A stretch of DNA of 64,000 bases from Candidatus Ornithomonoglobus intestinigallinarum (GTDB taxonomy: Bacteria > Bacillota > Clostridia > UBA1381), in NCBI GenBank assembly GCA_018715365.1, contig DVLU01000040.1:17028-81027 (forward strand). Reading direction: 5' to 3'. This document shows positions 1-63,768 of this stretch, piece by piece. The position numbers and the translations under genes were made by a program. Every line of letters starts with the position of its first letter. Within the stretch, counting starts at the first letter, position 1. Below the pieces are notes generated by a model, which saw nothing but the letters and a program-made list of their open reading frames with translations, was not told the origin of the DNA and did no database searches.

Positions 1-119
1 ATCTTTTTGCCGACGCGCTCGTTTGCTTCAAATATGACAACGTCGGCGCCGTGCTCCTTTGACGATATTGCAGCCAAAAGCCCCGATGCGCCGCCGCCTA
101 TTACTGCCGTTCGTTTCAT
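1..119 (-). CDS. NAD(P)/FAD-dependent oxidoreductase (HI0933/BaiN-like flavoprotein), N-terminal 39 codons only; continues off the left edge
   Basis: Own translation of the minus strand from the ATG at 119: MKRTAVIGGGASGLLAAISSKEHGADVVIFEANERVGKK, a Rossmann GxGxxG dinucleotide-binding N-terminus. It is in a different frame from the track ORF 28..225. Confidence 0.65.
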   Translation of the reverse strand, partial: MKRTAVIGGGASGLLAAISSKEHGADVVIFEANERVGKK

Positions 120-170
120 AATATCGATTATACCTTATATTGATTATATACTGATTATACTTTGCTGAAA

Positions 171-364
171 GGGCTGCGATTTCAGCGCAGACCGCTAAAC
201 AGCTTTGCTGTTTACCTACGAACAAAACGCACCACTCGGAGTGAACTTTTCAGCACTTTCGGCAAAGCCGAAAGCCGACCTTCGGTCGTCCGTGCCATCT
301 TGCACGGTGCCAACACGCCGTCTGGTGCGTTTTGTCCGTTCTGCATCTAAAATCGAGCAGTCCT
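171..364 (-). repeat. Structured ~195-nt repeat element, copy A (inverted partner at 63769..63963)
   Basis: The reverse complement of 171..364 aligns by hand to 63769..63963 with about 5 substitutions and 2 one-nt indels. It has a terminal helix gggctgc/gcag(t/c)cc, a 17-bp long-range helix and four internal hairpins. The strand given is the inferred RNA-sense strand. Confidence 0.85.
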
Positions 365-415
365 ATGCGATTCTTAAAGCGACAGCCCTTTCGCATATAA
401 TTTTAATATTTAATA

Positions 416-2236
416 TTATTCTTCTTCGATAATTATAAGCTTTGCCGAATATGCGCCGTTTGAGATCGTGCAGCGTGTATCGACAACGTCGCCCACCTTA
501 ATGTTCGAAACCGTGCGCGAAACGCCCTTTGACGTAACAACCGTAGTTGCGCTGTTTGAGCAGAATATTGTTTCCGCAACGTCCGAGCCCTCTGTAAGGA
601 CCTTTATGAATCCGAACGACGTATTAACGCTCGTTACCGTTCCGGCTATTCTGCCCTCCGAAGCAGCCGCGCCGCTTGAAACTATCTTTGTGATAGCTCC
701 CGATTCCGTCGTTATCGAAACGGAGTCGCCTACTCTGAAGTCGTAAAGCGAGCCTTCCTCGCCGTTTATCGTTATGGAAACGTCGTTGGGTATAACAAAT
801 TCCATATCCTCGCCGTTTACTCTCACAACCATTGACGGCTCCTGCGAAATGCTCAGGGACTGTATTACGCCCTGGTACGAGCGTGTTGACGATGTTGCCG
901 AAATGCTTACTATTTCGCCGTATTCAAGCTCTATTTCGTTTATCGAATCGCCGGGGTAGAGCGCCGACATGCTTGACGACTTACCGTTCTTTCTTACCGT
1001 GACGTCATCGGATACCGGATAGGTCATGCCGTCGTATTCCTTGTTTGTATGCGATATTGTAAGCGTAAGCGTGTCGTCGATATTTACCGACACAACCTTG
1101 CCGCCCTCAATCACCTGTGTCTTTTCCTGACCGATTACGTTTACAACAAGCCCGTTTTCAAGCTCGAGAGTTATAACGTCGCCCGTTGAGAAGCTGCGGA
1201 GCGTTGCCGGCGAGCCCTCGTAGGTCACGCTGAGATCTTCGGCGCAGGTGTAGCGTTTGGTGCTTGTTGAGCCGTTCGGTATCATGCGTATCTCGGTGCC
1301 CGAGCCCGAGAGCTGATAGCCCTGATAGCGGCCCGTTACCGTTTCGTCGGGCTCTGACGACGTAGCGTCAACGAGCACAACAACGCCGTTTGAAAGCGTA
1401 ACGTTTACGTTTACGTTCGTTATCATGTCGTCAAGCTGCGTGGCAATTCCCTGCACCTTAAACTGAGTGCTGTCGGTATATTCGTAATCCGTTACGGTGC
1501 CGTCCGTATCCCTTACCGAGATCAGCTTGCTGTCGGTGTCTATTTCCGTAAGCTTACCCTCTATGTATTCGTATTCCGTTGCGTCAACGACTCTTGCGAG
1601 CATCGTTGCCATCTGGCTCCTGAGAACGGGTGAGAGCGGCTCAAACTTGTTGCCGTCCATACCTGTCATAATGCCCTCTTTTGTTACGTAGTTTACGTAC
1701 TGCATGGCATTTCTCGGTATGTCGTTTACGTCAACGTATTCAAGGTCTATCGCAACCTCATCCATTGCTTCCTCTTCGCCGCCCATTGCCTTTGTTATGA
1801 TTATTGCCGCTTCATAACGCTGCATCGGCTGGTCTTTAACGTCTTTTATGTATGTGTCAAGATCGCTCTTTGAAAGCGCGCCCTTGTAGAGCATATAAAC
1901 AAGCTCGTCCTGACCCCATGTAAGACGGTAATCCTTAAGGAGATCGTCGTATGTATCGTGCGCCTGGCGGAGGATTTCCGCGTTTGCTTCGTCAGACGAG
2001 CCCATAGCCCTTGCAAAAAGCGCAATACACTCAAGCTTTGTTATGTTCTGGTCGGGCTTGAACGTGCCGTCCTCATAGCCCGTTATGTAGCCCATATCTG
2101 CCATTTTTTCGATATTGTCTCTTGCCCAGTCGTATTTTGTGTCGTCAAGATCGCTGAACATTCCGGCCGCGAATGATGAAACCGACATCGATGCTGCTGC
2201 GGCGGAGGCTGCAATAATGCTTATAATTTTTTTCAT
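416..2236 (-). CDS. SLH-domain cell-surface protein (N-terminal S-layer homology anchor)
   Basis: Signal peptide MKKIISIIAASAAAASMSVSSFAAG. SLH-type repeats follow (DWARDNIEKMADMGYITGYEDGTFKPDQNITKLECIALFARAMG and onward). 606 aa with an RBS-like AAAGGA upstream. Confidence 0.8.
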   Translation of the reverse strand: MKKIISIIAASAAAASMSVSSFAAGMFSDLDDTKYDWARDNIEKMADMGYITGYEDGTFKPDQNITKLECIALFARAMGSSDEANAEILRQAHDTYDDLLKDYRLTWGQDELVYMLYKGALSKSDLDTYIKDVKDQPMQRYEAAIIITKAMGGEEEAMDEVAIDLEYVDVNDIPRNAMQYVNYVTKEGIMTGMDGNKFEPLSPVLRSQMATMLARVVDATEYEYIEGKLTEIDTDSKLISVRDTDGTVTDYEYTDSTQFKVQGIATQLDDMITNVNVNVTLSNGVVVLVDATSSEPDETVTGRYQGYQLSGSGTEIRMIPNGSTSTKRYTCAEDLSVTYEGSPATLRSFSTGDVITLELENGLVVNVIGQEKTQVIEGGKVVSVNIDDTLTLTISHTNKEYDGMTYPVSDDVTVRKNGKSSSMSALYPGDSINEIELEYGEIVSISATSSTRSYQGVIQSLSISQEPSMVVRVNGEDMEFVIPNDVSITINGEEGSLYDFRVGDSVSITTESGAITKIVSSGAAASEGRIAGTVTSVNTSFGFIKVLTEGSDVAETIFCSNSATTVVTSKGVSRTVSNIKVGDVVDTRCTISNGAYSAKLIIIEEE

Positions 2237-2581: not shown

Positions 2582-3892
2582 ATGTGGGCATACGAAAGCG
2601 TATTTTATCAGATATACCCTCTGGGCTTCTGCGGAGCGCCGTTTGAGAACGACGGGGTGCAAAAGAGCAGGATATTAAAGGTTCTTGACTGGAGCGGGCA
2701 TATAAAAAAGCTCGGCGCAAACGCCGTATATTTTTCGCCGGTGTTCGAGTCGGACACTCACGGCTACAACACGCGCGATTACAAAAAGATAGATGTGCGC
2801 CTCGGCACAAACGAGGATTTTAAAAAGGTTTGCGCGGATCTTCACAAAAAGGGGATAAAGGTCGTGCTTGACGGCGTGTTCAATCATGTGGGGCGCGGCT
2901 TTTGGGCGTTTCTGGACGTTTTGCAAAACAGGGAAAATTCGCGTTACCGCGATTGGTTCCATATAGATTTCGGCGGAAATTCAAATTATAACGACGGCCT
3001 TTGGTATGAGGGCTGGGAGGGCAATTACGACCTTGTAAAGCTCAATTTAAGAAACAATGAGGTTGTTGAGCATATCCTTGACGCGGTAAAATTCTGGGTT
3101 GACGAATTTGACATAGACGGTCTGCGCCTTGACGTGGCGTATTGCCTTGACCTTGATTTCCTGAAAAGGCTGAGAAGCTTCACGAACGGGTTAAAGCCGG
3201 ACTTTGTGCTGATAGGCGAGCTGCTTCACGGCGACTACAATCGTTTTGTCAATGACGAGATGTGCCACAGCTGCACAAATTATGAGTGCTACAAGGGAAT
3301 ATATTCAAGCTTTAACTCGATGAACATGTTTGAAATAGTCCATTCGCTTATGCGCCAGTTCGGCCCGGAGCCGTGGACGCTTTATAAGGGCAGGCATCTG
3401 CTTGCGTTTGCCGATAACCACGACGTATCGCGCATTGCAAGCATACTGACAAACAAAAAGCATCTGCCGCTTGTTTACGGCATTGTGTTCGGAATGCCGG
3501 GCATACCGTGCGTCTATTACGGCAGCGAATGGGGCGCGGAGGCGCTTAAGAGCCAGGGCGACCCGGCTTTAAGGGCGTGCTTTGAGGAGCCGGAGGAAAA
3601 CGGGCTTACGGAATTTATTTCAAGGCTTGCGGCGGCGCATAAAGGCAGTGACGCGCTTATAAACGGCAGCTTCAGGTCTGTTGTGCTTCAGAACACGCAC
3701 TGCATATTCGAGCGTAAAACGGATAAGGAACGCGTGCTTGTTGCAATAAACGCCGCCGATACGCCGGCGGTGTGCCATTTTGACGCGGGCTGCGGCACGG
3801 CGGTTGATTTGATTACGGGCAAAACACACGATTTCGGCGGCGGCAGCGAGCTTGCGCCCTACAGCGTACAATACTGGAAAACGGAAAGATAA
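2582..3892 (+). CDS. Glycoside hydrolase family 13 (alpha-amylase family) enzyme, cytoplasmic
   Basis: All four GH13 conserved regions are visible: VLDGVFNHVG, DGLRLDVAY, IGELLHGD, FADNHDVSR. No signal peptide. RBS GGAGG lies 10 nt upstream. Confidence 0.85.
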   Translation: MWAYESVFYQIYPLGFCGAPFENDGVQKSRILKVLDWSGHIKKLGANAVYFSPVFESDTHGYNTRDYKKIDVRLGTNEDFKKVCADLHKKGIKVVLDGVFNHVGRGFWAFLDVLQNRENSRYRDWFHIDFGGNSNYNDGLWYEGWEGNYDLVKLNLRNNEVVEHILDAVKFWVDEFDIDGLRLDVAYCLDLDFLKRLRSFTNGLKPDFVLIGELLHGDYNRFVNDEMCHSCTNYECYKGIYSSFNSMNMFEIVHSLMRQFGPEPWTLYKGRHLLAFADNHDVSRIASILTNKKHLPLVYGIVFGMPGIPCVYYGSEWGAEALKSQGDPALRACFEEPEENGLTEFISRLAAAHKGSDALINGSFRSVVLQNTHCIFERKTDKERVLVAINAADTPAVCHFDAGCGTAVDLITGKTHDFGGGSELAPYSVQYWKTER

Positions 3893-3939
3893 GCAGATAA
3901 AAACAGCATAAATGTTTTGATATTGTAATCGTGCAGATA

Positions 3940-3968
3940 TTGACTTGAAACACGTATAGGTATATAAT
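3940..3968 (+). promoter_or_regulatory. Sigma-A type promoter
   Basis: TTGACT (3940..3945), 17-nt spacer, TATAAT (3963..3968). Confidence 0.6.
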
Positions 3969-4047
3969 ATATGCTATAATAATGTGTGTTCTCGGAAAAC
4001 GGGGGCTGGGCCGACGGGAACGGGATAAGAGTGGAGGAAGTAAAATT

Positions 4048-5457
4048 ATGCTTTGTAAAAAATGCGGAGCGCAGATACCGAACGATTCGGTGAAGTGCAA
4101 ATTCTGCGGCGAGGTATTTGTTGAAGAGCCTGCACCCGAGGAAAACGCGGGCGGCGGCGAAGAAAATATCGAAGCGGGCGATACGCGCGTTATAGACCTT
4201 GGCTCCAAACCGAAGGACGGGGAAACGCCCGGTGAGGTGAAGGCCGAAGGTGAGGAAACGGAGGCCGAGCGCTCAACGCACGATATATTTGAAGAAAACG
4301 AAAAGAAAAGAAAGAGCCAGGCGGAAAAAATCATAGATGAAAAACAGCAGCAGCTTGAAGAAATAACAATGCGCCGCGACAAGAAAAAGCGCAGGCAAAA
4401 GCGCAATAAAATAATCCTTGTCGCCTGCGTGTGCGCGCTTGTTGCGGGAGCTGCGGGCTTCGGCACATATTTTGTAAGAAACGGCGGAATAGGCACAACT
4501 GTCATCGCAACGCCGGCGCCGTCGGGTTCGCCGATACCGTCGCTTGCGCCGGTTCAGACGCCGGCTGCGGGAACGCCGATGCCTTCATCGTCGGCAGCGC
4601 CGGAAAACAGCGGTGAAAATAACGATGACGGCGAAAACGGAACGTCGGGCGGCGAGGGCAGCTGGACAAGAGTGGACGGCGATGGGAATTCGTCAGGCAC
4701 GGGTTCGTCAAACGGCGGAAGCACGTCGGGAGGGAGCACCTCGGGCGGCGGCACATCATCGGGTAACGGCGGCTCGTCGAACGGCGGGACGTCGGGCTCC
4801 GGAACGGGAACCTCATCATCTAACGGCGGAAGCGCTTCTGGCGGAGGCAGCTCTGCGGGAACAGGCTCGTCCGGCGGCAGCGGCAGTTCGTCCGGCGGCG
4901 GTGCGCAGGGCACTACGGAGCCCGTGAACACCGGACGGTATTCGGGAGTTGTAAGCGCGCCGATACAGGCAAAGCTTGCGGTCGGCAACGAGGTAATATA
5001 CGACGAAGCGTCGGGCAGATATTTCATGACGTTTAACCTTGACGGTGTTATGTATTACGCATACGTTTCCGAAGGCAGCACAACGGAGCAGGTGCGCGGA
5101 AAATATATTACCGTTACGGCAAACCCGACAAACGGGCGCTATAACGGAAATACCGTTTACGACATAACAAGCCTTACGTATTATGAGGGCGATTATATAA
5201 TTCCCGATTCGGGTACGCGCCTTATAAGCGAATCGGAAATACAGAATCTTTCAAAGGAACAGCTCGGCCTTGCGAGAAACGAGATATATGCGCGCCACGG
5301 ACGCAAGTTCCAGATGGAGGAATATCAGACGTATTTTGAGGGCAAATCGTGGTATAAGGTAAACCCGAATTATGATTACACAAACGACAACAACAACTTA
5401 AACGATATTGAGCTTATGAATGTCGATACGATATTAAAGGTGGAAAATTCAAAATAA
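4048..5457 (+). CDS. Zinc-ribbon / single-TM / Gly-Ser-rich / YARHG-domain protein
   Basis: Start moved to the ATG at 4048, preceded by GGAGGA. The protein has an N-terminal CxxC...CxxC ribbon (MLCKKCGAQIPNDSVKCKFCG) and a TM segment (IILVACVCALVAGAAGFG). A roughly 100-aa G/S/T low-complexity region follows, then a C-terminal ARNEIYARHGRKF motif typical of YARHG domains. Confidence 0.8.
   Translation: MLCKKCGAQIPNDSVKCKFCGEVFVEEPAPEENAGGGEENIEAGDTRVIDLGSKPKDGETPGEVKAEGEETEAERSTHDIFEENEKKRKSQAEKIIDEKQQQLEEITMRRDKKKRRQKRNKIILVACVCALVAGAAGFGTYFVRNGGIGTTVIATPAPSGSPIPSLAPVQTPAAGTPMPSSSAAPENSGENNDDGENGTSGGEGSWTRVDGDGNSSGTGSSNGGSTSGGSTSGGGTSSGNGGSSNGGTSGSGTGTSSSNGGSASGGGSSAGTGSSGGSGSSSGGGAQGTTEPVNTGRYSGVVSAPIQAKLAVGNEVIYDEASGRYFMTFNLDGVMYYAYVSEGSTTEQVRGKYITVTANPTNGRYNGNTVYDITSLTYYEGDYIIPDSGTRLISESEIQNLSKEQLGLARNEIYARHGRKFQMEEYQTYFEGKSWYKVNPNYDYTNDNNNLNDIELMNVDTILKVENSK
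4684..4905 (+). repeat. Coding low-complexity tract (degenerate GGx/TCx Gly-Ser repeats)
   Basis: Reiterated GGSTSGG / GGTSSGNGG / GSGSSSGGG coding units. This tract produces long spurious ORFs in other frames and on the opposite strand. Confidence 0.7.
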
Positions 5458-5494
5458 GAACCAAAAAAGGAGCGGAAAGCTCCTTTTTTGGTTC
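5457..5494. terminator. Bidirectional intrinsic terminator between convergent genes
   Basis: agaaccaaaaaaggagc-ggaa-gctccttttttggttct: a perfect 17-bp stem with A/T runs on both sides. Confidence 0.8.
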
Positions 5495-5511
5495 TTATTT
5501 GCCCCGCATAA

Positions 5512-6879
5512 TTATTTTCTATATATGGCTTCAAGCTTTTTAAACAATATAAAGAAGCATATGAAATGACATGCAAACGTTACCGCCCAGGTGAACGGGT
5601 ACGAAAAGTACAGCGTCGGCAGTGTCTGATTCCAGCGGAATACGGTAAATATCCATACGATACGAAGTCCGCACGCGCCGGCAAGCGACACAACCATCGG
5701 CATAAACGAATAGCCCAAGCCTCTCAGGCAGCCGACCATTACGTCCATGAGCCCGCACAGGAAGTACGGTGCGCATACGAGCGACAGGCGCATTATGCCG
5801 TATTCTATAACCTCCGCATCGGACGAATATATGCCGAGCAGCTGATGGCCGAATAAATACGCCGAAATGCCGAGCACAACGCCCGTTACCGTTACGCACG
5901 CAACGCAGAGCCACATTATGCGCTTTACCCTGTCAAGCTTTCCGGCGCCGTAGTTCTGGCCGGTAAACGATATTGCCGTCTGATGAAATGAGTTCATCGC
6001 TGTGTAAACGAAGCCCTCAATATTTGACGCCGCGGTGTTTCCCGCCATTGCAACGGAACCGAACAGGTTTATCGACGATTGTATCAATACGTTTGAAACG
6101 GAGAATATTGCGCCCTGCATGCCCGCCGGAAGCCCTATCTTCATTATCTGAACTATCTTGCGGCGGTTTATGCCGAGCTTTTTAAGGTGCAGCTTATACG
6201 GCCCTTCGGCTTTTACAAGCGCCCTCACAACAAGCCCCGACGAGAGTATCTGCGAAAGCACCGTTGCAAGCGCAACGCCCTCAACGCCCATTCCGAATTG
6301 AGTTACAAATATTACGTTCATTATAATATTGAGCGCGCCGGCGGCGGCAAGATAATAAAGCGGGCGGCGCGTGTCGCCTATTGCGCGGAATATCGCCGTA
6401 CCGAAGTTGTAGAGCATTATTATCGGCATTCCGGAGAAATAAACCTTCATATATAATGCGGCCTGGTCGAGCACATCGTCCGGCGTGCCCATAAGCTCAA
6501 GCAGCGGCTTTGAAAGGAAAAAGCCGAGGAAGATGAGAACAACGCCGCATACGACGCTGAACGTTATCGATGTATGTACAACCTCGCTTATGTCTTTTGT
6601 ATGTCCCGAGCCTATGTAGCGCGCGGTCATAACGTTTGTGCCGACGGAAAAGCCTATAAATACATTTATAAGAAGGTTTATAAGCGAGCTTGTAGAGCCG
6701 ACGGCGGCAAGCGCCTGATGCCCCACAAACCTGCCGACAACAATTATATCCGCCGCATTGAACAAAAGCTGCAGTATGCTTGAAAGCATGAGCGGTATTG
6801 CAAAAACGAGTATTTTTCCGAGCAGCGGTCCGCTGCACATATCCATTTCGTGTGAACGCTTCGCGGTTCGTTCCTTCAT
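5512..6879 (-). CDS. MATE family efflux transporter
   Basis: Multi-TM protein with the typical MATE N-terminus (GPLLGKILVFAIPLMLSSILQLLFNAADIIVVGRFVG). Start set at the ATG at 6879, which has AAGGAG upstream. Confidence 0.85.
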   Translation of the reverse strand: MKERTAKRSHEMDMCSGPLLGKILVFAIPLMLSSILQLLFNAADIIVVGRFVGHQALAAVGSTSSLINLLINVFIGFSVGTNVMTARYIGSGHTKDISEVVHTSITFSVVCGVVLIFLGFFLSKPLLELMGTPDDVLDQAALYMKVYFSGMPIIMLYNFGTAIFRAIGDTRRPLYYLAAAGALNIIMNVIFVTQFGMGVEGVALATVLSQILSSGLVVRALVKAEGPYKLHLKKLGINRRKIVQIMKIGLPAGMQGAIFSVSNVLIQSSINLFGSVAMAGNTAASNIEGFVYTAMNSFHQTAISFTGQNYGAGKLDRVKRIMWLCVACVTVTGVVLGISAYLFGHQLLGIYSSDAEVIEYGIMRLSLVCAPYFLCGLMDVMVGCLRGLGYSFMPMVVSLAGACGLRIVWIFTVFRWNQTLPTLYFSYPFTWAVTFACHFICFFILFKKLEAIYRK

Positions 6880-13768: not shown

Positions 13769-16700
13769 ATGATAAGAAATAAATTTAAAAAGCTTATCGC
13801 GCTGGCAAGTGCTGCGGCAATGGTTGCTTCGGTATATGTGCCGATTGCAACTGCGGCTGAAAATCCGGTTGAAGTAACGCCGAGTGAAACAGCGTATATT
13901 GATGGTATATCGGAAACCGGAACAGCGCACCCCGGTAAACTATTGACAAATTACAGCAAGCCCGAGGGCGACGTTTTTGTACACGGTAATAAGGATAATG
14001 TAGGGCAGGCGGCGCTGGTTAAATTTGATTTATCGGAATATGTCGGAAAAGTAAGAAGCGCTGAAATATCGCTTCATTCGCAGTGTACGGTATCAGGGAA
14101 AAATTCGGAGGTGAATTTCTCATCAATAGGAACGGATTGGAGCCAGGATACTGTAACATGGAGTAATCAAACAGGTATTGCGCCTATAAGTGAAAGAATT
14201 GCCGCGCTCGGCTTTGCGAGCAGCAGCGGTGCGGATTTCTCTTATGACCTTACCGATATGGTAAGAGCCGATGAGGACGGAATATTAGCTTTTGCGTTTT
14301 ATACAAGCACAGGCAGACAGCAGGAACTGACAAACGTTAAGCTTAATCTTGTAGTTGCGGATGAAGTAATTCCGCGGGCAACGATTACGGTAAATAATGT
14401 TCTTGAAGACGGTACTGTAATAGAAAGCTATACTGTTGAAGGTCTTTATGAAGGGGACAGCTATAGGGCAGATCCCGATATGACAAATGACAAAACAAAG
14501 GAAGAGCATTATTATACAATGTCAGACGGGGCTGTAACAACAATAGACAGCGTTTATGACGGGGCAGTGCTCGATATTAGATTTGAAGAAGTATTCCAGG
14601 AAGTGTTCATAAGCCAGAACTTTAATGATTCGGAAGTTGGAACATGGGGCTTTACAACAAATTCGGGCGTTTCGCTGACGGCGGACGGCGCGCTTGACCT
14701 TTGTACCGTAACTGCAGAAAGTACAGCGGGTGCTTTCGACACCAGAACATTTGACACTGATTTCCCCAATATGCTGGAGCAGACCTTTTTGGAGGTATCC
14801 TTCAGATGGAAGACAAATGTTGATCTTAACGCATCGGGAGGACGCTATTCGTGGTTCTCATTAAGAGACACAGAGGAAAATCCGATTTTTGTTATCATAG
14901 GTACCAGCAGCAGAGGTGCTTATGAGGACAACAGCGAAAGATTAAGACAAATATCTTACGGATATGATGAAACAGAGACGTTTGACGGTTTTAAGCAAAT
15001 AGAAAATCCCACAAATGATTTTTATAAGGTTCAGCTGAACCTTAATTTTGCAGTCGGTACAATGACCGGAAAAATAACCGATTCGAACGGCAATGTTGTT
15101 GCAAATATCAATCAGCCGCTTACCGCTAAAAACCTTGGCGGGTTGAAAGCATATCACGGTGAAGGCAGCGCATCTATGACGATTGATGACTTTAAAGTAT
15201 TCGGACCTAAAATGCAGAAGATTTCATTCACTGTTACAGATGAGGAAGGCAAGCCTGTAGGCAATGCAACTGTCAAGGTAGGCGATCAGACGGTTTTAAC
15301 AGACGCGGAAGGTAAAGCTGCGCTTGATCTTATAGCGAATACAACATATAATGTTGAAATAACAAAGGCTCAGTATCAGACATATACTCAGGAACTTGTT
15401 CTGGGCGAAGAAGATGTGGAAATCCCTGTTTCGATTATGCACCTTTCGGATGAGAACTTTGTAAAAGACGTTATAGCAAATATGGACATAGCAAACGGCA
15501 CAACTGTTGTTAAGTCAGATGGTGATTACATTGTAAGCGGAGATTTTACTCTGCCAAGTCCGAGCAATGTTACTGTCACGTGGTCAACAAATGCCGAAAA
15601 CGGCGAAGTTGTTATAGACGGTTCAAAAGCAGAGGTTTATCCCAAGGCGGACGGCGCAGATACAATAACGCTAAAGGCAAATGTTGCCTATGGCACATAT
15701 GACGAAGATGTAAGCTATACGCTTGATATTACAGATTATAAAGCGGCTGTAAAAGCTCCCGTTGACGATGCTGTTGCGGATAAGACGGTAAATCCGAATG
15801 ACGACCGCACAGGCTCATACGGTACGCCGGACGCTGCCGAAGGCAAGTTTGCGCTTGACACCTTCACGGCTGAAAACCCGCTTTCGTTTGACCTTTATCT
15901 GCCGTCATCGGTAAGCGGAAATTCAAATCTCAAACAGACATGGTCAGTAACGGGCGACGGTCTTGACGTTGACGGCGAGGTTGCCGCTTTGGCTGTTGAC
16001 AATACGGAGGCAAACAGCGCAAAAATAACAAAGACGGTTGCTTTTGTAAAGAACGGAACAACGCTTTATTCGGCATCGGCCGATTACGATGTAACGGTAC
16101 AGTTTGACCCCGCAGCCGTTGACGAAATGACTGATAAGTGGGCTGAAACCTCGGGAGAGGAAGACGTAAAGTCAACCTTCTTCTATGCGTACCAGCTTAA
16201 GCTTGACGCTGCAAGCGAGAAGAACTTTGCCGATATGCCCGATGAGGGTACAGACATCAGCACAAGCGGAATATCGAACCTCAACTACGGCGGCGAAGAC
16301 AGCGTATTCGGTTCGCTTATCGAGTGGACTTCATCGCAGTCGACGTATGCGTCTGTATCAAAGTCGAACAAGAAAGTTACCGTAAACAGATCGTCGTTCA
16401 GCGGAACGAAAGACATAACGCTTACGGCAACGATTTATATTGAAGGCTACAGCAAGAACGAAACAAGAGCCTTCAAATATGAAATCACAGGAACAAAGAG
16501 CTCAAGCAGCTCCGGCGGCGGCAGCGGCCGTCCTTCAACCGGCGGCGGCGGTACTATCCCCGTTCCCGTTGTAACACCCACACCCGCTCCCGTTGTAACG
16601 CCTACTCCGGCTGACGAAGCATTCGACGATATAGAAGGCGTTGAATCATGGGCGGGCGACGCAATAAGAGCGCTCTATTCGGAGGGCGTTATCGCAGGCA

Positions 16701-17177: not shown

Positions 17178-17212
17178 AAAAAAATCCCGCGGATTTCCCG
17201 CGGGATTTTTTT
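17178..17212 (+). terminator. Intrinsic terminator of the 13769..17155 gene
   Basis: aaaaaaatcccgcg-gatttcc-cgcgggattttttt. Confidence 0.8.
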
Positions 17213-24952: not shown

Positions 24953-26677
24953 TTATTTTGTATATCTTGAATTATCGCTGCGGACATCGTCGCTCAGCCT
25001 TTGCGCGCGCGCCGCGCTTCCCTTGTCGGGCTGCTGCTGTTTTTTCTTTTTCAGCTGCTGTATGCGTCTTTGCCTGTCGCGCTTTTTCTTTTTTGAGCTT
25101 GCAAAAAGCAAAACAAGTATTATCACAATTACCGGTATGAAGAAGAACGGGCTTGTGATTATCCTCAAAATAAGATTAAGAAAATGAAGTATTTCGTTTC
25201 TTTCAACGTCGTTTGTCGCAACAAGATTGGATACGCCTATCTGCGTGCCCTTGTAGGTGTATGTCACCGTGCCTATAACGTCGCCCTTTGTTATGGGAGC
25301 GTACAGCTCCTCGGGTATATTAACGTTCGTTATTATATCGGCGGCCCTGTCAACGTTTGCGGGAACAAGCGCGCTTACGTCCGTTTCAACGGTCAGTGCA
25401 ACACGCGTATCGTTTTTGGCCTCCTTCACCTTTGAGTCGGCAACAATATCTCCCGGCGCCGCTATCGGCTGGCTCACATAATTGTCAAAGCCGAAATCAA
25501 ACAGCTCGCGCGAATCGATATATGAATAAGCGCCCTCGTTGTCGTTTGTGTTTGGGCAGTTCATAACAACGGAAAGCAGATTTGTGCCGTTGTATTCCGC
25601 CGCCGCCGCAAGGCAGTAGCCCGACTGCGACGTATGCCCCGTTTTTATTCCCGTGCACGGCGGGTAATAATGCTGGAGCGAACGTATAGTGCTTAAAAAT
25701 AAATTTGTGTTTACAAGTATTCTCTGCGATGTATACTTGTTTGTCGGCTCTATTGTGTAGGTGACGGTTTTTACGATATTCCTGAACGTTTCGTTCTGCA
25801 TCGCATACTGCGCAAGCACGGCAATGTCGCGTGCCGTTGTGTAGTGGTTGTCGTCATGCGTGCCGCACGGATTGACAAAATGCGTATTCGTCATTCCGAG
25901 CTCCGCCGCCTTTGCGTTCATGATGTCAACAAAGCCCTGGAGCGAACCGCCGAGATGAACGGCGATAACGTTTGCCGCGTCGTTTGCGCTGTGTATCAGC
26001 ATACCGTTTACGAGCTGCTCAAACGTAAGCTCCTCGCCCGTAAGAATACCCATCTGCGAATCCTCGAGCGTTATCGGGGCAATAGCCTCGTAGCTTGCCG
26101 AAACAACGTCAGCCATGTTTCCGTTTTCTATTGCGATTATGCCGGTCATCATCTTTGTAAGGCTGGCGGGATAAAGGCGGGCGTCGATGTTTTTGCCGTA
26201 TAAAAGACGACCCGACTGCATATCCATAAGCAGCGCCGCCTGCGCGTACTGTATGTCGGGCGGCGTCAGAGAGTCGTCCTCGATATATATCGTGTCGGAG
26301 CCGGTCTGCGCCGTGCCGGAGCCTGTATCCGAGCCTTCGTCCGTACCGCTCTCGGTGTTTTCGCCCGAGGTGCTTTCCGCTTCGGAGCTGCCTGCTCCCT
26401 CCGTGTTCAGCGGCGTTTCGTCCGTTTGCGCCGGCGTGTCCGTATCGGAATCACCCGATGATGCGGCTGAACCCTCCGTATCCTGCGGTGCTTCGTCCGT
26501 TTGCGCGGAAGCATCCGACGGCTGCGCCGTGGAAGCATCCGACGGCTGCACAGTGGACGCTACGGCCTGCTGCGTTGTTCCCGCCGCGCTGCCCTTGGGC
26601 GACGGAGCGGCAAAGGCCGGCGTGAGCATTGAAAGACCGAGTATAAGCGCCAATGCGCCCAAAAGCCTTTTTTTCAT
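24953..26677 (-). CDS. D-alanyl-D-alanine carboxypeptidase (S11, PBP5/6 type) with a low-complexity N-terminal linker and a C-terminal TM plus basic tail
   Basis: SxxK (ASLTKMMTG), SxN (HSAND) and KTG (IKTGHT) motifs. Signal peptide MKKRLLGALALILGLSMLTPAFA. Start at 26677 with AGGAGG upstream. Confidence 0.9.
   Translation of the reverse strand: MKKRLLGALALILGLSMLTPAFAAPSPKGSAAGTTQQAVASTVQPSDASTAQPSDASAQTDEAPQDTEGSAASSGDSDTDTPAQTDETPLNTEGAGSSEAESTSGENTESGTDEGSDTGSGTAQTGSDTIYIEDDSLTPPDIQYAQAALLMDMQSGRLLYGKNIDARLYPASLTKMMTGIIAIENGNMADVVSASYEAIAPITLEDSQMGILTGEELTFEQLVNGMLIHSANDAANVIAVHLGGSLQGFVDIMNAKAAELGMTNTHFVNPCGTHDDNHYTTARDIAVLAQYAMQNETFRNIVKTVTYTIEPTNKYTSQRILVNTNLFLSTIRSLQHYYPPCTGIKTGHTSQSGYCLAAAAEYNGTNLLSVVMNCPNTNDNEGAYSYIDSRELFDFGFDNYVSQPIAAPGDIVADSKVKEAKNDTRVALTVETDVSALVPANVDRAADIITNVNIPEELYAPITKGDVIGTVTYTYKGTQIGVSNLVATNDVERNEILHFLNLILRIITSPFFFIPVIVIILVLLFASSKKKKRDRQRRIQQLKKKKQQQPDKGSAARAQRLSDDVRSDNSRYTK
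26507..26554 (-). repeat. 24-bp tandem duplication in the carboxypeptidase linker
   Basis: ggaagcatccgacggctgcgccgt / ggaagcatccgacggctgcacagt, encoding ST(V/A)QPSDA twice. Confidence 0.75.
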
Positions 26678-26924
26678 CAAAATAAAACCTCCTGAGTTTA
26701 ACGTAAAGAGCCTTTCGGACATAAACATTAACCATGATGTGAAAATTCTGCGGCGGAAGGCTCCGAGCTTATTTGTGCCAATAATAATTTCATTATATAT
26801 TATACAGCAAAATTTAAATTTTGCAATAACAAAAATGAAATTTGTAAAAATATATCGAAAAAATATATGGAGTTATGTAAACAGTGATATATTATGTTAA
26901 AAAAAGATAAGCGGCTTCACGGGA

Positions 26925-32939: not shown

Positions 32940-33170
32940 ATGAAGACATTTAACCTGCTGTTAAGCTCAATCAATGATGTAAAAGATTTTGTGAACATTG
33001 TAAGCAATTACGATTTTGACGTTGACCTCACATCGGGAAGATATGTTGTTGATGCAAAGTCGATAATGGGTATATTCAGCCTTGACCTTTCAAAGCCTAT
33101 AAAAGTTGAGGTTCACTCGGATGACTGCGATGACTTCATGAATGAGCTTTCAAAGTTTATCGTTCAGTAA
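32940..33170 (+). CDS. HPr-like small protein lacking the His15 region
   Basis: VDAKSIMGIFSLDLSKPIKVEVHSDD aligns with the HPr core ([24 protein letters not shown]). The N-terminus has no GxHARPA phosphorylation loop. RBS AAAAGGAGG. Confidence 0.6.
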   Translation: MKTFNLLLSSINDVKDFVNIVSNYDFDVDLTSGRYVVDAKSIMGIFSLDLSKPIKVEVHSDDCDDFMNELSKFIVQ

Positions 33171-33222
33171 ATTATAATATTGTACTTAATCAAAGAAAAA
33201 ACGCATAGGGTTGTTTGATTTT

Positions 33223-33265
33223 GGCACAGACCGATAAGCAGTAGATCTGTTTATCGGTCCGTGCC
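33223..33265. terminator. Bidirectional stem-loop between convergent genes
   Basis: ggcacagaccgataa-N12-ttatcggtccgtgcc. Confidence 0.6.
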
Positions 33266-33283
33266 GGAAGCGACAGCCCTTTT

Positions 33284-34024
33284 TTATTTCCCTTGCTGCC
33301 TTATCCGTGCAAGCGAAAGGCTTCTTAAGTGCTCAAAATCCCTACGCTCCTTTTCGCCCGGAATACGCACGGCGGCGGAAAAGCCTATAACGTCAGCGGC
33401 TCCGGCACGTTTAAGCGCCGCGGCGCACGTCCGCATTGTTATGCCGGTGGTGTATACGTCGTCGGCAATTATGATTTTCTTATCCGTCAAGTCGTTTACG
33501 GCCTCGAAGGCGTTTATTATATTTGTACGCCGCTCGAGTGCGGTAAGGTCGCTTTGGCGGCGTGTGTTGCGCGTTCTCACAAGCGTGCACGTGTCAACCG
33601 GAACGGAAACGGCGCGTGAAATTGCCCTTGCTATTATTTCGGCCTGGTTAAAGCCTCGGTCGTTCATGCGCTCCCTTGAGAGCGGGACGGGGATTATCGC
33701 GTCAAATTCTTTAAGATGCGGATATGCTGCGGCAAAATCTTCAATAAGCCGCGCCAAAATATCGCCGTTCTTGAAATCGGAGCGGAATTTGAAATTGCGG
33801 AGCACCGTTACGATTGCGCCGGAATATTCAAACGGCGAAAGCAAATACGAAACGGGAGAGAGCGCCTCAAAGCTCTGGCCGCGCCGCGTCCGCTTTAGAT
33901 TTTCGGAACATTCCGAGCAAAGGCCCGCCGCTCCGTCTGTTATGAAAAAATCTCCGCGCCGCTTCTTTCTGCCGCACCCGATACATACCGCATGCGACGC
34001 AAACAGTAAATCAAATATACGCAT
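33284..34024 (-). CDS. comFC: ComF family protein (ComFC, phosphoribosyltransferase-like)
   Basis: N-terminal Cys pairs (CIGCG ... CSEC) and PRTase motif KIIIADDVYTTGITM. Confidence 0.85.
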   Translation of the reverse strand: MRIFDLLFASHAVCIGCGRKKRRGDFFITDGAAGLCSECSENLKRTRRGQSFEALSPVSYLLSPFEYSGAIVTVLRNFKFRSDFKNGDILARLIEDFAAAYPHLKEFDAIIPVPLSRERMNDRGFNQAEIIARAISRAVSVPVDTCTLVRTRNTRRQSDLTALERRTNIINAFEAVNDLTDKKIIIADDVYTTGITMRTCAAALKRAGAADVIGFSAAVRIPGEKERRDFEHLRSLSLARIRQQGK

Positions 34025-34917: not shown

Positions 34918-36348
34918 ATGAAAAGAACAATTTTGGCGGCAATCATGCTTGCAATGACCGTTGTCTGCGCCGGATTTTCGGCTGCTGCGGCGGAGCAGAT
35001 CGTGCTTGACGCAAGCGCGGAGTACACAAGCGGCGGTCTTGAAATTACGGCAACGGCAAATAACGGCACTGATGAAGCAAAAGACTGTACGATGTATTTC
35101 TGCGTCTTTGAGGACGATGTGCTCCGTGCCGTGCGCATGAGCGAGCAGACCGTTCCGGCAGGAACGTCGAGCGTTACGGAAACGATTTCAATGGCGCAGC
35201 CGTCCGAGGGACAGTCGTTCGACATCAAGGTGTTTATGTGGGATGATTATCAAGACAATTCATGTATTGACGGTAGATATGATTTAATCGATAGAATTAT
35301 CGCTTATTCGCTTAATTCCTCCGAAGAATTAACTGTAAAATCCTATGACTTCACGGTACGGCTGGAGGAAGGTACATACGATATAAACAATTCAACACTC
35401 GGCAGGGTAAAGATTGACGAAAATACACGATTGTTAGATATTTCGTCATGCTGGAATGAAGACGAACAAAAATTTAATTCGGGAAGTAATGCCGGTACAG
35501 TTTCCTTTGATATGCTGATACCCGGTCAAACGTATGGGCTGACAGTAATACAGCCCGGTATGCTCTCTGCGTCACCGTTTGTTTTAATTTCGTCCGGTTT
35601 CAGCGGAGTGGGACGCATGGCGATAATCAAGGATACGTATAGCGCGTATGACGCCGAATCGGGCTCTATCATAACATGCTTTGACGTAATTGAAAACTCA
35701 GAGGAAAAGACGCTGAAGTGCGTGGATACTTCGTATTACGCAAGTGTCGGCGATGCTGTTTTGTATACACTTGACAATGACGGATATGGAGACTTGATAT
35801 ATGAAATTTCGAATGTCGATATGAGAGGCAAAGACAGATTTGAATATTTGAGCGGTATATACAATAACGGAATAATCAGCAGCGATTTGTGGGAGCTCGG
35901 AATGTATGATGAATTTATATTTGCTCCCGTAATAGACTGCGATGAAAACGGCATAACCGTCGGCAGCGTCGCTTACGGCTCGGAAATCGGAGACAAGGAG
36001 CTTACAAGCGGTAAGGCGGCATATTATGTTGACAGTACGCAGACGTATGAATACGATGATAACATATGCGCATACGCTATGTATGACAACAATTTCAGAC
36101 CTATGTTTGCGATAAACGCCATAGAACCGCAGGAGGTTGCAAAATCCGTTATTGCTCCGCCCTCGGAAAACACGGCGTCATATCTTGATGCGGCGGGCAA
36201 ATATATAAACCTCGGCATGGAGGACATTGACGAGCAGCCGAACCGTATACATTTTGCGCTGCTCGGAATCCGCGGCGGCGCCGTAATTGACGTTTATTCC
36301 ATAAAAATGAGAGATGACGATATTTTCAGCTATTTTACAGGACAGTAA
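34918..36348 (+). CDS. Secreted protein of unknown function (compositionally mosaic)
   Basis: Signal peptide MKRTILAAIMLAMTVVCAGFSAAAAEQ. RBS AGGAGGA. No recognisable motif. Confidence 0.7.
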   Translation: MKRTILAAIMLAMTVVCAGFSAAAAEQIVLDASAEYTSGGLEITATANNGTDEAKDCTMYFCVFEDDVLRAVRMSEQTVPAGTSSVTETISMAQPSEGQSFDIKVFMWDDYQDNSCIDGRYDLIDRIIAYSLNSSEELTVKSYDFTVRLEEGTYDINNSTLGRVKIDENTRLLDISSCWNEDEQKFNSGSNAGTVSFDMLIPGQTYGLTVIQPGMLSASPFVLISSGFSGVGRMAIIKDTYSAYDAESGSIITCFDVIENSEEKTLKCVDTSYYASVGDAVLYTLDNDGYGDLIYEISNVDMRGKDRFEYLSGIYNNGIISSDLWELGMYDEFIFAPVIDCDENGITVGSVAYGSEIGDKELTSGKAAYYVDSTQTYEYDDNICAYAMYDNNFRPMFAINAIEPQEVAKSVIAPPSENTASYLDAAGKYINLGMEDIDEQPNRIHFALLGIRGGAVIDVYSIKMRDDDIFSYFTGQ

Positions 36349-36382
36349 AGCAAAGGCCCCGCTTCGGCGGGGCTTTTGCTTT
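36347..36382 (+). terminator. Intrinsic terminator
   Basis: aaagcaaaggccccgc-ttcg-gcggggcttttgcttt. Confidence 0.8.
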
Positions 36383-36502
36383 ATCCTCTGACGCACCCCC
36401 ATTATATTAAAAATGTTAATTTTCTGTAACAAAGCTTGATAAATTTCGCAAATGATATTATAATATAGTTTGCGGATAACGAGGAAAGGAAAAATATGCA
36501 AT

Positions 36503-48369: not shown

Positions 48370-49374
48370 ATGTCTCTTATTTTGCCGGAAGGCTATAAGT
48401 CAAAGCTCGGCGGCAGACGCACCGAGGAAGCAATAAAATCCATAAAGGATACCTTCCAGAGGGAGCTTATAAACGCGCTTAACCTTCAGAGAATATCCGC
48501 GCCGCTTTTTGTAAGACCGGAAACGGGCTTGAACGATAATCTTAACGGCGTTGAAAGGCCTGTTGATTTTGATGCGCCCGGTATCGGCGGACGGCTTGAA
48601 ATAGTACATTCGCTTGCGAAATGGAAAAGACTAACTCTTGCAAAATATAAGTTTTCAAAGGGCGAAGGGCTCTACACCGACATGAACGCAATAAGGCGCG
48701 ATGAGGTGCTTGATAATCTTCACTCGATATACGTTGACCAGTGGGACTGGGAGGCCGTTATAGATAAGAGCGAAAGGAACCTCGATACGCTGAAAAATAC
48801 GGTCAAGAAAATTTATTCGGCAATTAAATCGACAAACGCAATAATACAGCAGAATTATCCGGAGCTTGACACATATCTTCCGGAGGAGATAACGTTTGTG
48901 ACAACCCAGGAGCTGGAGGACATGTATCCCGGTCTTGAGCCGAAGGAAAGGGAGGACAGGCTTTTGAGGGAAAAGAAAGCCGTGTTCCTTATGCAGATAG
49001 GCAAGGTCTTGAAATCCGGCAAAAAGCACGACGGCAGAGCGCCCGACTACGACGACTGGGAATTAAACGGTGATATACTCGTATATTATCCGCTGCTTGA
49101 CGCTTCGTTTGAGCTTTCGAGCATGGGTATAAGAGTTGACGAGGAAGCTCTTAAGAAGCAGGTTAAAGAATGTCACTGCGAGGACCGCCTTGAAATGGAC
49201 TTCCATAAGAAGCTCTTAAACGGCGAGCTGCCTTATACTATAGGCGGCGGCATAGGGCAGTCAAGGCTGTGTATGCTGATGCTCGGCAAAGCGCATATAG
49301 GCGAGGTTCAGGCGTCGGTATGGAGCGACGCGATGATAAAAACGTGCAGAGAGCACGGCATAGAGCTTTTGTAA
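48370..49374 (+). CDS. asnA: Aspartate--ammonia ligase (asparagine synthetase A)
   Basis: Collinear with E. coli AsnA as recalled: [55 protein letters not shown]. Confidence 0.93.
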
Positions 49375-49418
49375 AACAAACAAAAAGAACAAATAAGATA
49401 ATCAGGAAGGATAACGGT

Positions 49419-50810
49419 ATGGATACACTTGTAAAACGGCTGTTCCGCGAAAGCGGGGAATTTGCCGATAAGGAAATCACGGTATCGGGCTGGATACGCA
49501 CAATAAGAGTTTCAAAAAGCTTCGGCTTCATAGAGCTTAACGACGGCAGCTTTTTCAAGAATCTTCAGATAGTTATAGAGGAGGAAAAGCTTGATAATTT
49601 CAGGGAGCTGTCAAAGCTTAACGTCGGCGCGTCGATAACGGCGCGCGGTACGCTTGTGCTGACGCCCGAGGCAAAGCAGCCGTTTGAGCTAAAAGCCGGG
49701 GACGTTGTTATAGAAGGCACGTCAACTCCCGATTACCCGCTTCAGAAAAAGCGCCATTCATTTGAATATTTAAGGACAATAGCTCATCTGCGTCCGAGAA
49801 CGAACACCTTCTCGGCAGTGTTCCGCGTGCGTTCGCTCATAGCTCAGGCGATACACCAATTCTTTGCCGAGCGCGGTTTTGTGTATGTCCATACGCCGAT
49901 AATAACGGCGAGCGACTGCGAGGGCGCGGGCGAGATGTTTAAGGTAACGACGCTCGATATGGATAAGCTACCCAAAACGGACGAGGGCGCCGTTGATTAT
50001 TCAAAGGACTTTTTCGGCAAGCCGACAAACCTGACGGTAAGCGGACAGCTCAACGTTGAAACGTTCTGCATGGCGTTCAGAAACGTCTACACGTTCGGAC
50101 CCACGTTCAGAGCCGAAAATTCGAACACTACGCGCCATGCGGCGGAATTCTGGATGATAGAGCCGGAGATTGCTTTTGCCGACCTTAACGACGACATGGA
50201 TCTTGCGGAGGCAATGCTTAAGTATATAATAAACTATTGTCTTGAAAACGCCCCGGAGGAAATGGCGTTTTTCAACAGCTTTGTGGACAAGGGGCTGCTT
50301 GAGAGGCTTCATAACGTCGTATCAAATGAATTTGCGAGAATAACATATACAGAGGCTGTTGAAATATTAAAGAAAAACAACGATAAATTCGAATACCCCG
50401 TTGAATGGGGCAGCGATCTCCAAACGGAGCATGAGCGTTATCTCACGGAGCAGATATACAAAAAGCCAGTGTTTGTAACGGACTATCCCAAGGAGATAAA
50501 GGCATTTTACATGAAGCTTAACGGCGACAACAAAACAGTTGCCGCAATGGACCTGCTCGTTCCCGGCGTCGGCGAAATAATCGGCGGCAGCCAGAGGGAG
50601 GAAAATTACGATACGCTTGTGCGGAAAATGCACGAGTGCGGTCTTAACGAGGAGGACTACGGCTTCTATCTCGACCTCAGAAAATACGGCACGAACAAGC
50701 ACGCGGGCTTCGGCCTGGGCTTTGAAAGAGCCGTTATGTACATCACCGGTATGCAGAATATAAGAGACGTACTGCCGTTCCCCAGAACGGTCGGCACGGC
50801 CGAATATTAA
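49419..50810 (+). CDS. asnS: Asparagine--tRNA ligase
   Basis: OB-fold N-terminus ([25 protein letters not shown]) and class II core ([29 protein letters not shown]). Start at the ATG at 49419. Confidence 0.93.
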
Positions 50811-50813
50811 ATG

Positions 50814-50877
50814 GCTGCCGCTTTTGCGCGGATCGGAGCAGCGGTTTCCGTCCGCGCAGAAGACGGGCGGCTTTTTT
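50814..50877 (+). terminator. Probable asnS terminator (nested GC hairpins, then TTTTTT)
   Basis: gcgcgga/tccgcgc and ccgtc/gacgg pairings, ending gcggctttttt. Confidence 0.5.
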
Positions 50878-50956
50878 GTAAACAGGCATACGGCTCGGGC
50901 TTTATGGTGAGCTGTTTTATTTCATACCCAAAAGACGGGCGAAAGGCGGATAAATT

Positions 50957-59091: not shown

Positions 59092-59150
59092 AGGCTGTCG
59101 CTTTTAGCAGGACGCGATCCGAAAATTTTTATGGCTAAAAACGACAGCCT
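59092..59150 (+). promoter_or_regulatory. 17-bp stem-loop in the serA-metA spacer (function unknown)
   Basis: aggctgtcgcttttagc-N25-gctaaaaacgacagcct with one mismatch. No adjacent U-tract. Confidence 0.4.
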
Positions 59151-63264: not shown

Positions 63265-63753
63265 GTGAAACGTATAATTTTTATTTTGATAATCCTTACC
63301 GCATTCGGCATAGCGGCGGTGTCTTTCGGGACAAGCGTCCCGCAAACGGAGGTACGGCTGTATTTTACCGATGCGCAGATATTAAAGCTCTTGCCCGTGC
63401 GCGTCATGATACCCGAGCTTACGCCCGAGGAACAGGCAAAGCTTGTTATAAAAGCGCTGATAGAGGGCGATGACGATAATTTAAAAATACGCCGCACAAT
63501 ACCGGATATACGCGGCTGTATGTCGGTAAAGGTGAAGGGCGAAATAGCGTATGTCGATATAAAACGCAAAATGATTGAAAATCACAGCGAGGGACGCGAT
63601 ATAGAACTGCTTACCGTGTATTCGATAGTAAATTCCCTTGCCAGCGTAAAAGGCATAACGAATGTGCGGTTCACAATAGAAGGCGAGGTCAGCGAGGATT
63701 TTATGGGGTATCTGGATATGAGGGAAACGTTTATTCCCGATTATACGGTTTAG
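63265..63753 (+). CDS. GerMN domain protein (sporulation/germination associated)
   Basis: GTG start after GGAGG. N-terminal TM/signal. The pattern LYFTD...LLPV...AKLVIKALIEG...AYVDI...ELLTVYSIVNSLASVKGITNVRFTIEGE fits GerMN. Confidence 0.65.
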   Translation: MKRIIFILIILTAFGIAAVSFGTSVPQTEVRLYFTDAQILKLLPVRVMIPELTPEEQAKLVIKALIEGDDDNLKIRRTIPDIRGCMSVKVKGEIAYVDIKRKMIENHSEGRDIELLTVYSIVNSLASVKGITNVRFTIEGEVSEDFMGYLDMRETFIPDYTV

Positions 63754-63768
63754 CGAAGCGGACACACA

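Follow-up and report, generated by a model that had tools for sequence, protein, structure and literature searches.

Location of the repeated element

The window, that is, the whole 64,000-nucleotide (nt) stretch of contig DVLU01000040.1 of Candidatus Ornithomonoglobus intestinigallinarum that was analyzed, carries two copies of a palindromic element of about 195 nt, both of which are situated at gene ends. Copy A (171..364) lies between a gene encoding an SLH-domain protein (416..2236, − strand), the stop codon of which is located 50 nt upstream of the copy and 24 nt upstream of an extra arm beside it, and the 5' end of a gene encoding an HI0933-like flavoprotein (1..120, − strand, with ATG at 120), which is located downstream. 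Copy B (63769..63963, + strand), which is 96% identical to the reverse complement of copy A, lies between two convergent genes. One of them encodes a Germane-domain protein (63265..63753, + strand) and stops at 63753, 15 nt before the copy; the other encodes a class II aldolase on the − strand and stops at ~63972, ~6-8 nt from the copy. A consensus scan of both spacers found no promoter-like site ahead of copy A or B and no further terminator-like hairpin in either spacer.

A window-wide repeat search returned a single long inverted pair (204-367 vs 63765-63928, ungapped over 164 nt, 96%). Gapped global alignment confirmed the claim of an earlier note on this sequence that 171..364 is the reverse complement of 63769..63963 with five substitutions and two one-nt indels. 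The substitutions were A179C, T323G, T333C, T346G and T361C (copy-A + coordinates), and the indels were located after 176 and after 206, the latter in the loop of the hairpin 196..214, TAAACAGC-TTT(A)-GCTGTTTA, as had been noted. The differences between the copies were concentrated in the outer arms.

Both copies were recovered, at 99-100% identity, from 15 independent metagenome contigs, which shows that the repeat did not arise as an artefact of assembly. Copy A was found in 5 assemblies and copy B in 10, with a single orientation at each locus (15/15 same-species contigs). Three contigs terminated inside or directly beside the element, which is the behavior expected of a repeat, and two long contigs covered both copies in an identical arrangement.

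The open reading frames (ORFs) scanned between A and B represented housekeeping genes (PPDK, ThiF, ComEC, MiaB, Lon, AsnA, an aminoacyl-tRNA synthetase and others). The window ORFs scanned included no transposase, integrase or RAYT-like gene, and no recombinase gene was found among these ORFs and the called genes of the 10-kb flanks. Since the scanned ORFs between the copies were housekeeping genes without a transposase or integrase, and since the two long contigs kept the arrangement, the pair does not bound a mobile island; its interpretation as the limits of a composite transposon, prophage or island was rejected, the gene order around A also being that of relatives. A large inversion between A and B was rejected as well because the SLH and HI0933 genes flank A as in relatives and the arrangement was kept in the two long contigs. 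The element had been described as non-coding, and this was supported: its concatenated six-frame translation, with which spurious ORFs over other copies were also sought, gave no match among 5.8 billion proteins.

Anatomy of the long element

Every helix named in the earlier note was present in the minimum-free-energy (MFE) folds. The MFE of copy A was −88.4 kcal/mol on the + strand (z −7.4) and −102.9 kcal/mol on the − strand (z −8.2), and for each strand 0/200 dinucleotide shuffles folded as well. The − strand, which folds better, is sense to the SLH gene ending at 416.

Terminal inverted repeats were present. The outer arms of copy A, GGGCTGCGATTTCAGCGCAGACC (171..193) and TCTGCATCTAAAATCGAGCAGTCC (340..363), pair in a helix of ~20 pairs with bulges (~23-bp, imperfect). 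The basal stem is GC-rich (GGGCTGYCGC / GCGRCAGCCC) and of the type closing ordinary gene-end hairpins in these genomes. The inner part of the arm 171..193 was 100% conserved in the homologue from another species (L124, see below). On the − strand, the arm 340..363 contains the block CGATTTTAGATGCAGAAC, which was conserved in all long and medium family members; the conserved family block is also written CGRTYTTAGMTRCRGAAY, and the element arm GCTTTCAGCGCAGACCGC. The apical hairpin TAAACAGC-TTT-GCTGTTTA (196..214) is common to the short form S described below, and another hairpin takes its place in L124.

Inside the outer helix lies a 17-bp helix. On the + strand, its 5' half, ACGAACAAAACGCACCA (218..234), reads as an A-tract followed by a GC stem, and its 3' half, TGGTGCGTTTTGTCCGT (323..339), as a GC stem followed by a U-tract; by reading, the helix ends in GGUGCG-UUUUGUUCGU on the − strand and GGUGCG-UUUUGUCCGU on the + strand. 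Together, the two halves read as a bidirectional intrinsic terminator, and the layout of A-tract, GC stem and U-tract matches that of the plain bidirectional terminators of the window (5452..5500, 17178..17212 and 36346..36383). In contrast to ordinary bidirectional terminators between convergent genes, the loop is a conserved, structured stretch of 88 nt rather than 3-8 nt, and a further 23-bp helix surrounds the whole. The loop contains a four-way-junction core (235..322) consisting of a closing helix and three hairpins (256..274, 276..288 and 290..307). For the covariance model and the core alignment, 235..325 (91 nt) was used, the final 3 nt of which overlap the half-helix 323..339.

Two substitutions in the long-range helix had been described as G/A changes opposite T. 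This held for T333C, which gives A-U versus G-U on the A−/B+ strand, and did not hold for T323G, which is A/C on that strand and leaves the terminal pair broken on both strands. The second G-U pair of the helix is common to both copies.

The extra arm beside copy A, AAAGCGACAGCCCTTT (376..391), reads AAAGGGCTGTCGCTTT on the − strand. The same sequence forms the 5' stem of the SLH gene-end hairpin found in the relatives L120, L126 and L124, and the arm represents the basal stem of the ancestral SLH gene-end hairpin. Together with 168..185, it forms a 16-bp inverted repeat bracketing the whole unit of copy A, and it could act as a third arm by alternative pairing with 168..185. From the outside to the inside, the long form consists of a GC-rich basal stem, a long imperfect outer helix, a putative bidirectional terminator helix and, seated in the loop of this terminator, the 91-nt four-way junction.

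Short and looser family members in the window

The short form S (33207..33283, + strand), a 77-nt imperfect hairpin followed by TTTTTTATTT, was found between the convergent genes of an HPr-like protein (32940..33170, + strand) and a ComF-like protein (33284..34024, − strand). Its arms aligned with the outer shell of A/B over 48 nt at 77% identity on one side and over ~28 nt, including the flanking CCTATGCG, on the other. The motif GCACAGACCGATAAACAG had 4 matches vs 0.06 expected. S folded at −47.9 kcal/mol on the + strand vs −36.3 on the − strand, and the three-hairpin core was absent from it. Because S aligns with the outer shell at both ends, the long element is modular, composed of an S-like hairpin and an inner module of ~125 nt (218..339).

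The basal-stem 12-mer motif GGCTGTCGCTTT occurred 6 times in the window vs 0.5 expected. Two of the matches lie within looser relatives, namely two long gene-end hairpins, one (50811..50878) after a tRNA-synthetase gene (49269..50810) and the other (59092..59150) separating a 2-hydroxyacid dehydrogenase gene from metA. The bases of their stems, GGCTGCCGCTTT and GGCTGTCGCTTT, resemble the basal stem of the family.

The position of copy A upstream of the co-oriented HI0933-like gene, together with its complex fold, would agree with a 5' leader or a riboswitch-like regulator of the downstream gene. This is contradicted by copy B and S: with convergent genes on their two sides, neither has a downstream gene on either strand. 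Given also that the downstream genes are unrelated and that Rfam gave no match, such a function is considered extremely improbable.

Searches for known families and for further copies

The element had been described as unclassified, and this was borne out: Rfam 15 gave 0 matches at gathering score in the 64-kb window. When A, B and L124 were searched at E<=10 or E<=5, all matches were below half of the gathering score of the respective family and were regarded as noise. Nothing was obtained for the hammerhead, other small ribozymes, the T-box or attC in the permissive Rfam search, and the contexts were unsuited to them. The tRNA/tmRNA scan found none.

The blastn search of the element against plasmid and phage collections gave no match. 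Two 18-mers were used as patterns in larger collections. In the GTDB representative genomes, AGCCGACCTTCGGTCGTC had 24 matches in unrelated taxa, limited to ~18-28 nt around the pattern, which by estimate is about the number expected by chance. In the JGI metagenomes, GAACTTTTCAGCACTTTC had 74 matches, none of which extended to the rest of the element. An exact-pattern scan of IMG/VR with 3 patterns gave no match. Within the genus, an nhmmer profile of the core found no further copy in ~390 kb and a covariance model of the core found none in ~253 kb; in ~300 kb of relatives, no family copy was found besides L124 and L129. Long copies numbered 2 in ~90 kb of the window species and 1 in 17 kb of another species.

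Family members in related species

The uncultured, Clostridium-like genus Candidatus Ornithomonoglobus was named from chicken-gut metagenomes (PMC8035907). Synteny at the SLH site was kept across relatives (MatE, YARHG, amylase, SLH, HI0933). Three of them (L120, L126 and L128) had a plain hairpin with the same basal stem at this site, e.g., GGGGCTGTCGC-TTTTGA-CGCGGCAGCCC, and the plain hairpin of L127 had another stem. A full homologue of the long element, 72% identical over 144-163 nt (E 1e-17 to 1e-20), was present at the orthologous SLH site of L124; it was colinear from one arm to the other, with both the spacer and the extra arm included. Compared with the window species, its interior was inverted relative to the SLH gene, the SLH-proximal arm staying in place. 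The 3' half of the 17-bp helix was replaced in L124 by a separate canonical terminator hairpin, AAGAAAGAAAAATGGCG...CGCCATTTTTCTTTCTT.

Two further observations were made at the SLH site. In L125, the 3' site of the SLH gene (3803..4081) holds an unrelated 278-nt hairpin-filled spacer that includes a canonical terminator; the site seems to be prone to acquiring hairpin-rich sequences. In addition, relatives carry a gene of an AI-2E-family transporter (380-387 aa) between the SLH and HI0933-like genes, overlapping the start of the latter. In a comparison of window positions 120..416 with L120 6725..8004 and L124 6485..8004, this gene was absent from the window species, where only element A and ~50 nt with three TATAAT boxes were present.

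At the aldolase site, relatives with 92%, 91% and 87% identical aldolase had simple hairpins only and other neighbor genes. In L129, the aldolase of which is 97% identical, a medium family member of ~150 nt was located behind the aldolase gene. Its outer arms and 5' spacer were as in the long element, and it contained the conserved block in the form CGRTYTTAGATRCRGAAY. Its inner helix was a textbook bidirectional terminator, AACAAACAAAACGAAGGCC-TGCC-GGCCTTCGTTTTGTTTGT, without the three-hairpin core, and its orientation relative to the aldolase gene was opposite to that of copy B.

Downstream of the aldolase, a different gene followed in every relative examined (L114, L116, L129 and L130): the genes found 3' of it encode the Germane-domain protein, a PFL-activating enzyme, an AraC-type regulator, a putative glycoside-hydrolase-like protein (assigned by eye) and a Cu_amine_oxidN1/GDSL protein. 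The aldolase 3' end is a rearrangement breakpoint. In O. merdipullorum, the terminator behind an identical aldolase protein was polymorphic (L116 11293..11413 vs L117 11293..11525), being either a simple hairpin, GGGGGCTGAGCAAAT..ATTTGCTCAGCCC, or an unrelated hairpin-rich form 112 nt longer. Forty-eight nt of the longer form recurred at L117 6164..6211 (98%) and 6057..6081, beside a truncated PDDEXK_9 gene. This insertion looks like a second small repeat family of the genus, which also resides in terminator hairpins.

Selection on pairing

To estimate neutral divergence, fourfold-degenerate sites of the flanking SLH and HI0933 genes were compared between the window species and L124 and were found to be 40-45% identical (differing at ~55-60%). 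In the model-fitted alignment of the 91-nt core, which leans towards the model, paired columns differed at 8/50 (16%) and unpaired columns at 21/43 (49%). This alignment replaced whole-element pair counts obtained with MAFFT, which were unreliable because of register shifts. In agreement with the claim that the hairpins are under selection, 24 of the 25 core pairs were kept in L124, two of them by double compensatory change and two by G-U; one pair was broken. Since unpaired positions had drifted nearly like neutral sites and the stems had held, these data suggest that the element has long resided at the SLH site, with selection for pairing as such and not for the sequence of loops and junctions.

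Strand asymmetry

The strand asymmetry proposed in the earlier note was real and larger than claimed. In the MFE folds, G-U pairs numbered 6 in both copies on the A−/B+ strand vs 1 in both on the opposite strand; with S included, the counts for A, B and S were 6/6/5 on the stronger-folding strand vs 1/1/1 on the other. For copy A, the stronger-folding strand is the only gene-sense strand. For B and S, located between convergent genes, it is sense to one of the two flanking genes. The core was also more stable on the SLH-sense strand than on the other strand in both species (−38.3 vs −32.7 kcal/mol in the window, −39.2 vs −30.5 kcal/mol in L124), despite the flip. Single-stranded DNA hairpins also tolerate G-T pairs. 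However, an RNA-level explanation is the simplest for the fact that the favored strand follows the transcribed one at the two SLH sites even after the flip.

In the earlier note, the asymmetry was taken to indicate selection on an RNA made from one particular strand. A discrete RNA having its own sense strand would be a free-standing structured non-coding RNA gene, or a small RNA derived from a 3' untranslated region (3' UTR), in which the four-way-junction core would be functional. The very stable fold, the core architecture kept across species with compensatory changes and the G-U asymmetry itself speak for such an RNA, which would be new, since no known family matched. This reading was nevertheless not supported. 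The orientation of the element to the flanking gene was flipped both in L124 and in L129, and for both A and L124, located at SLH sites, the core folded better on the strand that is sense to the upstream gene, regardless of the orientation of the element. No promoter-like site preceded either copy, the three-hairpin core was absent from S and L129, and the long-range helix, which has the anatomy of a bidirectional terminator, was broken in L124. Moreover, the near-neutral loops and junctions (21/43 differing) are unlike those of ribozymes, riboswitches and protein-binding RNAs, and the element occurred only in a few close relatives of one genus. A discrete RNA is therefore considered quite unlikely, and A and B are most likely structured elements of mRNA 3' ends, not free-standing RNA genes.

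The inverted interior of L124 bears on another possibility, namely that the element is an inverton, in which the ~16-bp inverted repeats (AAAGGGCTGTCGCTTT at 391..376 on the − strand, and 168..185) allow a flip that alters SLH read-through into the downstream genes. It would account for the inversion of the whole interior between the two species with the SLH-proximal arm fixed, and the site lies behind a surface-protein gene. However, one orientation was seen in 5/5 copy-A and 10/10 copy-B assemblies, and no recombinase gene was present among the scanned ORFs or the called flank genes. The sense strand was re-optimized in each species, which implies a long-fixed orientation, and the embedded terminator is symmetric, so that a flip would change little. 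An inverton is thus very improbable.

Duplication and spread

The element has been copied at least once, copy B being a recent duplicate of the copy-A type at the aldolase/Germane spacer. This is supported by the 96% identity of A and B together with the absence of such an element from the aldolase site in the 92%, 91% and 87% relatives; the 97% relative L129 had a very different family member there.

A purely selfish, non-autonomous repeat similar to miniature inverted-repeat transposable elements (MITEs) or REPINs, moved in trans by a transposase encoded elsewhere, targeting terminator hairpins and having no RNA-level function, could produce much of this picture. It would have terminal inverted repeats such as the ~23-bp imperfect ones seen here, and it would explain two nearly identical copies at unrelated loci, a B site free of the element in relatives, opposite orientations at the same site in different species and contigs ending in or beside the element. 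The hairpin-rich insertion polymorphic in O. merdipullorum at the same aldolase terminator, partly repeated elsewhere, is a further point in its favor. However, no target-site duplication was found, there being no direct repeat in the sequences bordering A (..GCTGAAA / TATGCGA..) and B (..CTAACGG / TGTGTGT..), and the many degenerate copies with such duplications that would mark a plain MITE were not seen in the sequence covered. There was also no transposase among the window ORFs scanned and no further copy in ~390 kb of the genus; the 18-mers were not above chance in GTDB and JGI, and IMG/VR, plasmids and phages gave no match. In addition, near-neutral unpaired positions beside conserved stems point to long residence under selection, not to recent spread. 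A purely selfish repeat is therefore considered rather unlikely.

Under the reading preferred here, spread, homogenization and orientation flips might proceed by recombination through the inverted arms or with the help of a trans-acting enzyme. Because the arms are inverted repeats of each other, homogenization and flips could be explained by arm recombination without a transposase.

A probable gene-end element

Taken together, the anatomy, position, family relationships, conservation of pairing and duplication, each of which is directly supported by the data above, are best accommodated by a lineage-specific, modular, palindromic gene-end element of Candidatus Ornithomonoglobus that is selected as a 3'-UTR terminator or stabilizer and is occasionally copied. 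This is considered somewhat probable. The element would be part of the upstream transcript, forming its 3' untranslated or intercistronic end, and would act there as a very stable terminator and/or a block to 3' exonucleases. Because it would be transcribed and act in this way, selection would fall on pairing in whichever strand is transcribed. The long form would be a gene-end structure enlarged by nesting. We infer both the terminator or stabilizer activity and the mechanism of copying.

Several points weigh against this reading. In A and B, only weak U-tracts (CCCUUUCAGC and CCCCCGUUAGUUUAUUU) follow the outermost stem, and the consensus terminator scan calls neither copy, missing them on account of their large loop and their bulges. 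Textbook terminator hairpins do occur in the versions of L129 and L124. It is unusual for a terminator stem to close a structured loop of 91 nt. Moreover, L124 has a disrupted 17-bp helix and, beside the core, a canonical terminator hairpin of its own, so the core is possibly a passenger and not a part of the terminator. The L124 whole-element MFE folds had G-U pairs in equal numbers on the two strands (6 vs 6), and the cross-species test amounts to one independent comparison. Finally, long copies were few (2 in ~90 kb and 1 in 17 kb, as given above), and no target-site duplication is visible.

Another possibility is that the 91-nt core itself is a functional RNA module, such as a protein-binding or processing signal yielding a stable 3'-UTR-derived RNA, which has been selected on the transcribed strand since before the two Ornithomonoglobus species split and has been copied to a second gene end. 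This is regarded as unlikely; if true, the core would represent a previously undescribed RNA class inside a terminator loop.

Comparison with known repeat families

The idea that palindromes protect the upstream mRNA from 3' exonucleases comes from REP/BIME sequences, and the same mechanism is proposed for the gene-end element described here. REPs are 20-40 nt long, occur in hundreds of copies and are linked to RAYT transposases. REP/BIME sequences of enterobacteria and pseudomonads are GC-rich imperfect palindromes with a mosaic structure, located in 3' UTRs and between convergent genes (PMC3184786, PMC12306157); an effect on mRNA stability has been documented for them, and their distribution is biased to convergent pairs of genes (PMC3184786). 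The present element is likewise a GC-rich palindrome of modular build at gene ends. In contrast to REP/BIME sequences, it is low-copy, long and nested, with a four-way junction, and no RAYT-like gene accompanied it among the window ORFs scanned.

SPRITE is a pneumococcal dispersed intergenic repeat with a predicted intrinsic-terminator structure, located at gene ends and restricted to one lineage (Delihas 2011, PMC3184786). The present element is also a dispersed, lineage-restricted intergenic repeat at gene ends with a predicted terminator structure. It differs from SPRITE as described in being low-copy in the sequence at hand, longer (195 nt) and nested, with short, medium and long forms; no relationship in sequence was found, although no direct comparison with SPRITE was made. 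The MITEs Correia/CREE, ERIC and RUP fold into long hairpins in transcripts (PMC3184786). They resemble the present element in their length of 100-200 nt, terminal inverted repeats, co-transcription with neighbors (predicted here) and presence or absence between relatives. They differ in having target-site duplications (e.g., TA) and in being present in tens to hundreds of copies, whereas two long copies were found here and no duplication was visible. By every testable feature, the element lies outside the REP/BIME and SPRITE families, and we rate it as a new family of the REP/BIME-like and SPRITE-like kind.

If the gene-end reading is true, the family provides a clear case of nesting of gene-end hairpins, from a plain stem to a long hairpin and to a terminator with a four-way junction in its loop, with selection on the transcribed strand visible even after a DNA flip. 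It would be a natural example of terminator and 3'-UTR structures evolving and moving between genes, and in this uncultured gut anaerobe, the element may stabilize mRNAs transcribed from surface-layer genes. Caution in motif searches is also advised: a very stable, conserved and covarying multi-hairpin structure need not be a stand-alone RNA gene. The wider importance is limited because the distribution is narrow, comprising few copies in a few close relatives of one genus.

Other observations

The contig ends ~6 kb to the right of the window were considered as a sign of a further copy of the element, and this was rejected because the sequence there represents promoters of the rRNA-operon type. 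L030 (~16100..16498) and L031 (~16050..16470) end, and L036 ends slightly further, in tandem strong promoters TTGACA .. TATAGT. These ends are a repeat-induced assembly break unrelated to the element.

In the 64-kb window, a tRNA gene was not detected, nor was any riboswitch or T-box, despite the presence of metK, metA, an aminoacyl-tRNA synthetase gene and genes of amino-acid biosynthesis. A 51-nt direct repeat (26392..26442 / 26467..26517; 76% identical, 75-nt spacing) was found in a D-Ala-D-Ala carboxypeptidase-like gene (24953..26728, − strand), where it is probably a repeated linker.

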